From Escherichia coli (lineage in GTDB: Bacteria > Pseudomonadota > Gammaproteobacteria > Enterobacterales > Enterobacteriaceae), in assembly GCF_048403405.1 (NCBI RefSeq), contig NZ_CP183129.1: a stretch of DNA of 64,000 bases. One strand, written 5' to 3'. The translations under genes and the position numbers were made by a program. Position 1 is the stretch's first letter. Every line of letters begins with the position of its first letter. The notes beneath the pieces are model-generated. The model had not been told where the DNA came from. It did not search any database and was given only the letters and a program-made list of their open reading frames with translations. Below are positions 8-1,969 of the stretch, piece by piece.

Positions 8-856
<849 letters not shown>

Positions 857-884: not shown

Positions 885-1058
885 TTACTGACTCGCCGCA
901 GCCAACTCTTCTTCTGACACCCCGGTAAAACGCAGGGTGTCTGCAAGATGGACTCCGGATTACAGCATTCTTTTGGCAATATCCAGGGCTTCCAGGCGTC
1001 GATCCAATAAATAACCAATCAGGTAACTAATAAGATATTCTCTTTCTGCATCTGTCAT
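885..1058 (-). pseudogene. degenerate duplicate of the rpnA 3-prime tail (32-codon [35 protein letters not shown] followed by stop and out-of-register remnant)
   Basis: About 70 percent nucleotide identity between 949-1000 and rpnA 3-prime region 1140-1195 (shared ttttggcaatat core); translated remnant parallels RpnA C-terminus (MT.AER ... IAK.ML ... LRFT). Confidence 0.45.
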
Positions 1059-1075
1059 TAAAACCATCCTTTACG

Positions 1076-1969
1076 TTATTGATGATTTATTTCAGCAAGG
1101 TCTTCAACCGTCAGGCTGGTAAATCGCAGAACGTCCTCAAGAGAGACTCCGGCATCCAGCATGGTTTTGGCAATATTTAGGGCGTTGGTACGTATACCTT
1201 TCTGAAACCCCTCCTGCCGCAATCTTTCCGCAATAGTCATTAAACTCTCCTTGTGTTTCGGTGAACGTTCGGCCACACCGTCGATAAAATCGTTAAAACG
1301 TACCGCATCGCCAGTTTGCAGTATGTAATTAAACAGCCCTTTGATTTGTCTGTCATTAGCGTATCCACTACTTAATAAGCAGGCCATTTGCTCTACCAGC
1401 CCCATCAGGTCGCGTTGACGAATATGTTTTTGAATTAACTCCAGCAGTGCCATACGTCGGTGCTGCATGATTTCATCATCAGGCATGACGGTGACATCAA
1501 TCAGCGGAAATGCAGAGGCATAAAGCTGCCTTGCCAGGTTGGGATCGGCGAAACAATCAAGCCAACACAGCGAATAGGGATAGGGGCTTTCAATACCGTG
1601 GTAAAACAACAATGGCACCACCATCGGCAAGGTTTTGTATCCGGCATCCAGGTGATTTTGCATTGCGGCAATGGCGTAGCGCATCATGCGAAATGCGATC
1701 AGTTTGTTTGAGGTGCTTTGATGTTCAATCAGACAATAGATGTATCCTGGCCCTTGTTCCGTTTTCACCGACCACAGCACGTCGGAATAGCTTTCACGCA
1801 GATCGTCATCAATAAAGCTGCTCGACTCCAGCTTGAGGGTTTTCATATCACAGAGCGCGTGAATAGGTGCCGGTAAATGGAACGCAAGAAAATCGCGCGC
1901 CGTCTCCGGTTGGCGTAAAAAGAGTTTGAACAGCGCATCGTGTGGGGTGGAACTCTGCTTTTTGCTCAT
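1076..1969 (-). CDS. rpnA: recombination-promoting nuclease RpnA (YhgA-like, transposase_31 / PD-(D/E)XK family)
   Basis: 297-aa ORF matching remembered E. coli YhgA/RpnA; start codon choice uncertain (K-12 annotation slightly shorter, from memory). Confidence 0.85.

Follow-up and report, generated by a model that had tools for sequence, protein, structure and literature searches.

A probable nonsense allele of a second, free-standing RpnA_S-type gene downstream of Escherichia coli rpnA

Between the Escherichia coli nuclease gene rpnA and the convergent gene bioH lies a stretch of about 190 bp that resembles the 3' end of rpnA itself. Is it the debris of a duplication, a small gene in its own right or the footprint of an exchange of gene tails? 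We addressed this question in a window of 64,000 nt of E. coli DNA (RefSeq assembly GCF_048403405.1, contig NZ_CP183129.1), to which all positions refer and in which the stretch occupies positions 885–1075. An earlier reading, made from the letters without database searches (the sequence-only reading), had described a decayed same-strand copy of the rpnA tail and had offered tail exchange or a free-standing small-protein gene as its meaning. We conclude, with a probability of roughly 0.8, that positions 885–1071 (minus strand) hold, as a nonsense allele, a small free-standing gene: another copy of the RpnA_S antitoxin unit, diverged from the first and equivalent to the RpnSs copies known beside other rpn genes.

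In E. coli K-12, internal translation starts in all five rpn genes give rise to small C-terminal proteins termed RpnS (Zhong et al. 2023, PNAS, PMC10400941), a feature of Rpn genes that the sequence-only reading had stated correctly. RpnS blocks the toxic nuclease RpnL, and RpnA_S is a dimeric three-helix bundle in which pairing specificity is set by how many four-residue repeats helix 1 contains (PMC10400941). The same study described free-standing second copies, 'RpnSs', downstream of rpnE (ypaA) and rpnC, as well as the loss of these copies through deletion or through fusion with the N-terminal domain of rpn, and its authors speculated that RpnL itself may start such recombination (PMC10400941). 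A copy downstream of rpnA is not named in the main text of that paper, and a literature search for later work on RpnS gave only the 2023 paper and its commentary.

A small reading frame and its lesion

The downstream unit is homologous to the end of rpnA. At the DNA level, the best ungapped match (924–989 against 1118–1183) has 48 of 66 bases identical (73%) and a score of 57, about 17 standard deviations above the scores of 500 shuffles (16.8 ± 2.3, maximum 26), and a looser alignment of the two units covers 91 bp. Compared as proteins, the tails share 51% of their residues over 39 aa (BLASTP E = 2e-11). The proposed same-strand copy is thus borne out by significant alignments of both DNA and protein. 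Tandem Repeats Finder reported no repeat in 850–1300, the duplication, with its period of 194 bp, being too diverged for that program.

Database matches connect the unit with the experimentally defined RpnS of this same locus. The crystal structure of K-12 RpnA_S (PDB 7TH0) aligns with residues 21–57 of the unit (E = 1e-10), which correspond to residues 13–49 of RpnA_S, and the best NCBIfam match is the RpnA equivalog (profile positions 257–292, E = 4e-10). RpnA accounts for all significant matches in PDB and NCBIfam, and every protein homologue that we found comes from the rpnA locus. Judged by these database matches, the RpnS nearest to the unit is that of the gene directly upstream.

The minus-strand translation stays in one frame throughout. 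The unit comprises the full 57 codons, from 1058 down to 888, before its terminal TAA, and the only lesion is a TAA at codon 33, so that the translation reads KRML, stop, SGVHLADTLRFTGVSEEELAAASQ, stop. The sequence-only reading had the remnant continue out of register after the first stop; this does not hold, as the same frame runs on to the terminal TAA. The unit is thus a full 57-codon nonsense allele and not a frame-broken remnant. The 32-codon ORF (open reading frame) and its peptide were described correctly in that reading, with the start at the ATG of 1058–1056; the program-made ORF list extends the frame to an earlier ATG at 1067.

The ORF, which begins MTDAEREYLISYLIGYLL, is separate from rpnA, lies directly downstream on the same strand and has its own start codon and Shine-Dalgarno (SD) sequence, with 17 nt (1059–1075) between the rpnA stop and its ATG. 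The SD is the same in every two-tail locus that we aligned, and in the alignment the SD and start region resemble the region of the internal start within rpnA. Helix 1 (YLISYLIGYLLD) carries the four-residue repeats YLIS, YLIG and YLLD from residue 8, and the number of such repeats differs among alleles: P0017 has an extra YLIS, and the number of YLISYLLDR segments differs among the Escherichia albertii proteins P0011, P0012 and P0014. Because the stop lies where helix 1 ends, translation does not reach helices 2 and 3, and the window's ORF keeps helix 1 alone of the three-helix bundle rather than being open over the whole unit, as an RpnSs gene is. The part beyond the stop matches the C-terminus of K-12 RpnA in position and sequence; its residues differ from most alleles at P37H, I41T and M42L, and one of these three differences is common to L011, an allele with an open frame.

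Intact small genes, nonsense alleles and fused tails

Intact versions of the unit occur elsewhere in Escherichia. A protein search with the window's unit, translated from ATG 1067 with E placed at the stop, gave ten distinct clusters of 57-aa proteins that are 81–93% identical to the query, some of them from E. coli and Escherichia ruysiae records. All ten (P0001–P0010) have precomputed matches to Pfam PF27070 (HTH_Rpn_C), as do RpnA tails. The contigs encoding them, among them the complete E. ruysiae genome CP057804, share the order feoB-feoC-rpnA-[57-aa ORF]-bioH, with the ORF starting 17 nt past the rpnA stop. The AlphaFold2 model of P0001 has a predicted local distance difference test score (pLDDT) of 92.9, with helices at residues 3–33, 38–45 and 49–56, and its top PDB neighbour is 7TH0 (probability 1.00). 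An open frame is seen in E. ruysiae as well as in L011, L014, L015, L016 and L017–19. At codon 33, alleles like those of E. ruysiae have CAA, the K-12 tail has GAA, as do L014 and L016, and TAT stands in L015, a metagenome contig whose intact unit follows an E. coli-like core 99.0% identical to that of the window. The suggestion of a free-standing small gene therefore stands for E. ruysiae and some E. coli, which have an intact 57-aa HTH_Rpn_C ORF at the same position; in the window that gene is truncated. Likewise, the description of a decayed copy holds as to the copy; it does not hold as to decay of the adjacent tail, the unit being closer to the K-12 tail and to the intact free-standing genes.

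The spacer was compared across 5,426 complete E. coli genomes, a comparison that the sequence-only reading had proposed. A 601-nt query across the region matched in 5,424 of them and at full length in only 854; in the remaining genomes, K-12 included, it matched in two pieces spanning 395 nt. The two-unit segment (985–1200) is present in 853 genomes, always on the chromosome, in one copy and at the rpnA locus, and a 40-mer across the K-12 junction is present in 4,529 (83%). About 44 genomes (RM13745-type and similar) match only part of the segment, that of tail 1, as we call the C-terminal tail of the window's own RpnA. Going by the strains listed, we take the two-unit genomes to be largely of phylogroup B2. 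The exact 30-mer around the stop, with TAA, was found in 826 of the 853 two-unit genomes and with one mismatch in the other 27; two of these 27 (L020 and L021) were inspected, and both keep the TAA and have a second stop at codon 35 (GGA to TGA). The same 30-mer with CAA or TAT in place of TAA had no exact match among the 5,426 genomes. By these searches and the two inspected genomes, no open codon 33 was seen among the 853.

RefSeq mostly leaves the downstream unit without annotation; in strain NU14 it is a pseudogene labelled 'transposase; internal stop; incomplete'. NU14 and ATCC 11775 both carry the window's nonsense allele. In the two-unit genomes L002 and L006, one locus-tag number is skipped between bioH and rpnA (RS13565 to RS13555 and RS20860 to RS20850), while the tags are consecutive in K-12-type genomes, which suggests that a feature was formerly called there and later dropped. 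The bioH–rpnA region and the K-12 junction each had one match on a record classed as a plasmid.

The single-tail genomes differ from the window by what they lack. K-12 RpnA (292 aa) consists of core residues 1–254 joined to codons 20–57 of the downstream unit, and its C-terminus (…EQSKALHIAKIMLESGVPLADIMRFTGLSEEELAAASQ) runs on into the counterpart of that unit; a segment of 206 nt flanked by GGG(G) at both ends in the alignments is absent (Table 1). The DNA of the last ~40 nt of the unit and of the 28 nt between its terminal stop and the bioH stop is identical in K-12 and the window. By its sequence, then, the K-12 RpnA tail is the counterpart of the window's downstream 'remnant' and not of the window strain's in-frame tail 1. 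L014 holds the K-12 segment EQSKALHIAK within an intact small gene, from which the K-12 form would result by one 206-nt deletion between the GGG(G) runs. L016 (metagenome contig ERZ27273576, 602–1674) has rpnA codons 1–243 100% identical to K-12, yet two units, and the C-terminal part of its intact 57-aa small gene does not differ from the K-12 tail. L016 resembles a pre-fusion form closely related to the K-12 allele.

Other junctions exist. RM13745 has a single RpnA tail with a tail 1-like start and a downstream-unit-like end, joined at LRFT. In E. albertii (L101, CP034212, 2001–2237; P0011, P0012 and P0014), rpnA is reduced to a chimeric ORF of 78–96 aa in which RpnA residues 42–69 are joined to the downstream unit. 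The metagenome contig L102 (291–657) has a third in-frame type of RpnA tail, with HRQG/VQQG/VQQG repeats (…EGHRQGVQQGVQQGRRLEALDIAQTMLKAGIPHEDIILFTSLTMEELKEIIH); none of the 5,426 complete E. coli genomes has this type, a search of them giving only 70–79% matches to other tails. In L102, the SD and the first 11 codons of the downstream unit nearly duplicate the internal-start region of rpnA, a resemblance in sequence that supports an origin of the downstream unit through duplication of a small-protein unit. The rpnA locus is thus found in alternative states across Escherichia: two units of which the small gene is intact, two units with a nonsense codon, and several in-frame fusions. As to the idea that the stretch is a footprint of tail exchange, K-12 and other lineages do carry in-frame fusions, and the window itself is in the unfused two-unit state.

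Across the sampled loci, the ratio of non-synonymous to synonymous polymorphism (pN/pS) is 0.03 in the rpnA core, calculated without L017, which has an indel there. Tail 1 shows no non-synonymous differences among the 297-aa alleles. For the intact downstream unit pN/pS is about 0.7, and this unit is either weakly constrained or diversifying.

Weighing the readings

The likeness to the published second copies is close. As with RpnE_Ss (YpaA) and RpnC_Ss, there is a small same-strand ORF directly downstream of an rpn gene and homologous to that gene's own RpnS, with its own ribosome-binding site, variation in the four-residue repeats of helix 1 and strain-variable presence. It differs in lying at rpnA, in having a stop at codon 33 in the window and in the two-unit E. 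coli genomes examined, and in that its product is a predicted one, where YpaA was detected by tagging. With K-12 RpnA_S it shares the three-helix fold, as modelled, and the identical DNA at its end; K-12 RpnA_S, in contrast, is translated inside rpnA, while the downstream unit forms an ORF apart from rpnA, differs in helix 1, which is also longer, and is truncated in the window.

In its intact form, the gene has an SD and an ATG of its own and encodes a three-helix HTH_Rpn_C protein of 57 aa. A consensus scan (800–2100 and 1960–2200) found no terminator-like site between rpnA and the small gene, so both the rpnA message and the short internal rpnA_S transcript would be expected to run on into the latter. 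If its product behaves like RpnS proteins, it would pair, through its long first helix, with the tail of an RpnA_L or RpnA_S, and the four-residue repeats of that helix would set the specificity of pairing. In the window's lineage we consider it most likely that the gene has become an inactivated pseudogene.

Several observations weigh against this reading. The one ground for concluding loss of function is that helices 2 and 3 are absent. All sampled TAA alleles keep the SD, the ATG and the frame, and the TAA is found across the two-unit complete genomes examined; both facts also fit a short product that has been retained. In the TAA alleles pN/pS is 0.39 before the stop and 0.28 after it, values from very small counts that do not separate the two parts. 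The consensus scan gave no promoter-like site, an absence that is weak evidence. Neither the restored 57-aa sequence nor the RpnA_S tail matched DUF4351 (Pfam PF14261) at E ≤ 1. Finally, Escherichia whittamii and most E. coli have a single K-12-type tail, which leaves deletion no more than the favoured direction of change.

Could the 32-aa product itself be made and functional, as a minimal modulator or decoy of RpnA_L/RpnA_S, with the nonsense allele under selection? The uniform TAA and the SD and ATG, intact and identical in all sampled alleles, would fit, as would the position of the second lesion in L020 and L021, which lies past the first stop and does not alter the 32-aa ORF; moreover, the long first helix is the dimer interface in the RpnA_S crystal structure, where its repeats set specificity (PMC10400941). 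However, inheritance within one clade of close relatives explains the uniform TAA equally well, helix 1 of the unit is strongly unlike that of the same strain's RpnA tail, and one extra repeat abolishes pairing (PMC10400941). A lone 32-aa amphipathic helix may also be unstable, RefSeq handles the region as a pseudogene, and alleles with TAT (Y) and all 57 codons open suggest that the full-length form matters. We regard a functional short product as quite improbable, the 32-aa product being more likely that of a pseudogene than a working antitoxin. That the stretch is a recent, decaying duplicate of the strain's own rpnA 3' end, with no history as a gene, is very improbable. Such a duplicate would account for the shared strand, the adjacency and the clear similarity, but the unit is 73% identical to the adjacent tail, against 81–93% protein identity to intact 57-aa genes elsewhere, it has its own SD and ATG, distinct N-terminal repeats and a single lesion, and the idea is contradicted by the K-12 alignment, with its identical terminal DNA and bioH spacer, and by intact orthologues at the same position. 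Hardly credible, lastly, is a fragment of a transposase or insertion sequence (IS), which RefSeq product names ('transposase', 'ISNCY family transposase') and one NCBIfam model of an Rpn paralogue called 'ISNCY family transposase' might suggest: the match is confined to the C-terminal HTH tail of the RpnA profile and includes no catalytic domain, and one chromosomal copy is present per genome, always at rpnA.

Accepting a nonsense allele of an RpnSs-type gene, in which direction did the locus change? Deletion from a two-unit ancestor is favoured, though not proven, over insertion into a single-tail ancestor. The converse, in which the K-12-type single tail is ancestral and two units arose later by tandem duplication or by a foreign tail that displaced the original one downstream, is less probable but carries real weight. 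Most complete E. coli genomes (83%) and E. whittamii have the single tail, and the latter means that outgroups alone leave the direction of change unfixed; a contig search with RpnA gave mainly paralogues of 40–66% identity (Photorhabdus, Xenorhabdus, Erwinia and others), E. whittamii (L023) as the one informative Escherichia locus, and no Salmonella or Citrobacter orthologue of rpnA. Duplication would also fit the resemblance of the downstream SD and start region to the internal-start region of rpnA, the near-exact copy of that region in L102 and the published inference that RpnSs copies derive from their own upstream genes (PMC10400941). Against a single-tail ancestor, E. coli and E. ruysiae both have the two-unit state, in which tail 1 hardly varies, and L014 is converted to K-12 by one deletion at GGG(G) microhomology, whereas the reverse step would be a precise 206-nt insertion creating a stop, a spacer, an SD and 19 codons. 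In part, moreover, the case for a single-tail ancestor concerns an older origin by duplication, which is compatible with later deletions.

A further, on balance unlikely, proposal is that the tandem units serve as a one-shot cassette, recurrent in-frame deletions swapping the tail of RpnA_L and RpnA_S in a single step. The junctions do differ in K-12-type, RM13745-type and E. albertii loci, and it is similarly unlikely that each such deletion resets pairing specificity; phages may exert pressure on the process, and the RpnA nuclease may itself promote it. If so, K-12 RpnA/RpnA_S and the solved structure would be products of a switch, and the window's disabled copy an unused cassette. Neisseria pilE/pilS offers an analogy only: there too, a paralogous segment, non-expressed or separately expressed, adjoins an expressed gene, and mosaic or fused alleles occur in the population. 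It differs in that deletions at rpnA use up the cassette, and we obtained no evidence of reversible or programmed switching.

These findings stay within the framework published for rpnC and rpnE (PMC10400941) and extend to rpnA the pattern of a downstream small gene. They explain a 190-bp stretch that is unannotated or misnamed in roughly a sixth of complete E. coli genomes. The structure and biochemistry of RpnA_S used the K-12 tail, that is, the counterpart of the downstream unit; the RpnA_L/RpnA_S tail of the window strain differs from it, so that findings on pairing in K-12 may not transfer directly. The natural alleles, whether intact, nonsense or fused in several ways, are ready material for study of how the specificity of Rpn toxin–antitoxin pairs evolves.

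Features of the bioH–rpnA locus

The stops of bioH and rpnA are separated by 219 nt (Table 1), and beyond rpnA follow feoC and then feoB. RpnA_L consists of a PD-(D/E)XK Transposase_31 core (Pfam PF04754, E = 2e-91) and tail 1, and matches the NCBIfam RpnA equivalog with 675 bits. Tail 1 has its own ribosome-binding site, AAGGAG at 1247–1252, where the sequence is the same as in K-12 rpnA; in K-12, the internal start M244 and the ribosome-binding site at K240/E241 have been shown by experiment (PMC10400941).

Table 1. Coordinates of features between bioH and rpnA in the window
Feature	Positions	Strand	Remarks and source
bioH	86..856	+	convergent with small gene; ORF list, RefSeq annotation
rpnA (RpnA_L, 297 aa)	1076..1969	-	ORF list; Pfam, NCBIfam and RefSeq annotation of identical sequence
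RpnA_S unit 1 (tail 1)	1076..1240	-	internal-start ORF from M244, 54 aa; read from sequence
Segment of 206 nt absent from K-12-type genomes	1002..1207	-	rpnA codons 255-297 and stop, 17-nt spacer, small-gene codons 1-19
Shine-Dalgarno AAGGA of downstream unit	1067..1071	-	8 nt upstream of ATG 1058; read from sequence
Codons 1-32 of small gene (rpnA_Ss-like)	963..1058	-	helix 1 of three-helix fold (helix 3-33 in AlphaFold2 model of P0001)
Repeats YLIS-YLIG-YLLD (codons 8-19) in helix 1	1002..1037	-	four residues each, three times; count differs among alleles
Premature stop TAA, codon 33	960..962	-	CAA (Q), GAA (E) or TAT (Y) in other alleles
Post-stop codons 34-57 and terminal TAA	885..959	-	SGVHLADTLRFTGVSEEELAAASQ, stop; in frame; helices 2 and 3 (38-45 and 49-56 in model)

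Within tail 1, at about 1178–1189 (rpnA codons 261–264), alleles differ in length by 12 nt, or four residues, the shorter form (IRAIAK) being found in L003, L006, L016 and RM13745. This difference is consistent with the four-residue repeat variation reported for helix 1 of RpnS. An Rfam scan of 780–1320 on both strands gave only two sub-threshold eukaryotic families and no sign of an RNA element. In the gap between feoC and rpnA, a G+C-rich inverted repeat (GCCCGG … CCGGGC) lies between an A-run and a T-run at 2121–2145 and resembles a two-way terminator parting the feo operon from rpnA; the terminator scanner made no call there, probably owing to the long loop.

The locus has also received insertions and other lesions in individual strains. 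RM13745 (L004, 587–1215) carries a PemK/MazF-MazE toxin–antitoxin pair in the bioH–rpnA interval, and strain 2017.10.01CC (L007, 263–1491) an IS3-family element. In the E. ruysiae-like contig L010 (2089–2983), the rpnA call is split into two ORFs (200 and 109 aa), suggestive of a frameshift within the nuclease core, and the small gene is intact. In E. whittamii (L023, 2260–3390), an IS200/IS605-type TnpB-like ORF of 376 aa splits rpnA at about codon 215, and the same insertion end is present in L102 (1–153).

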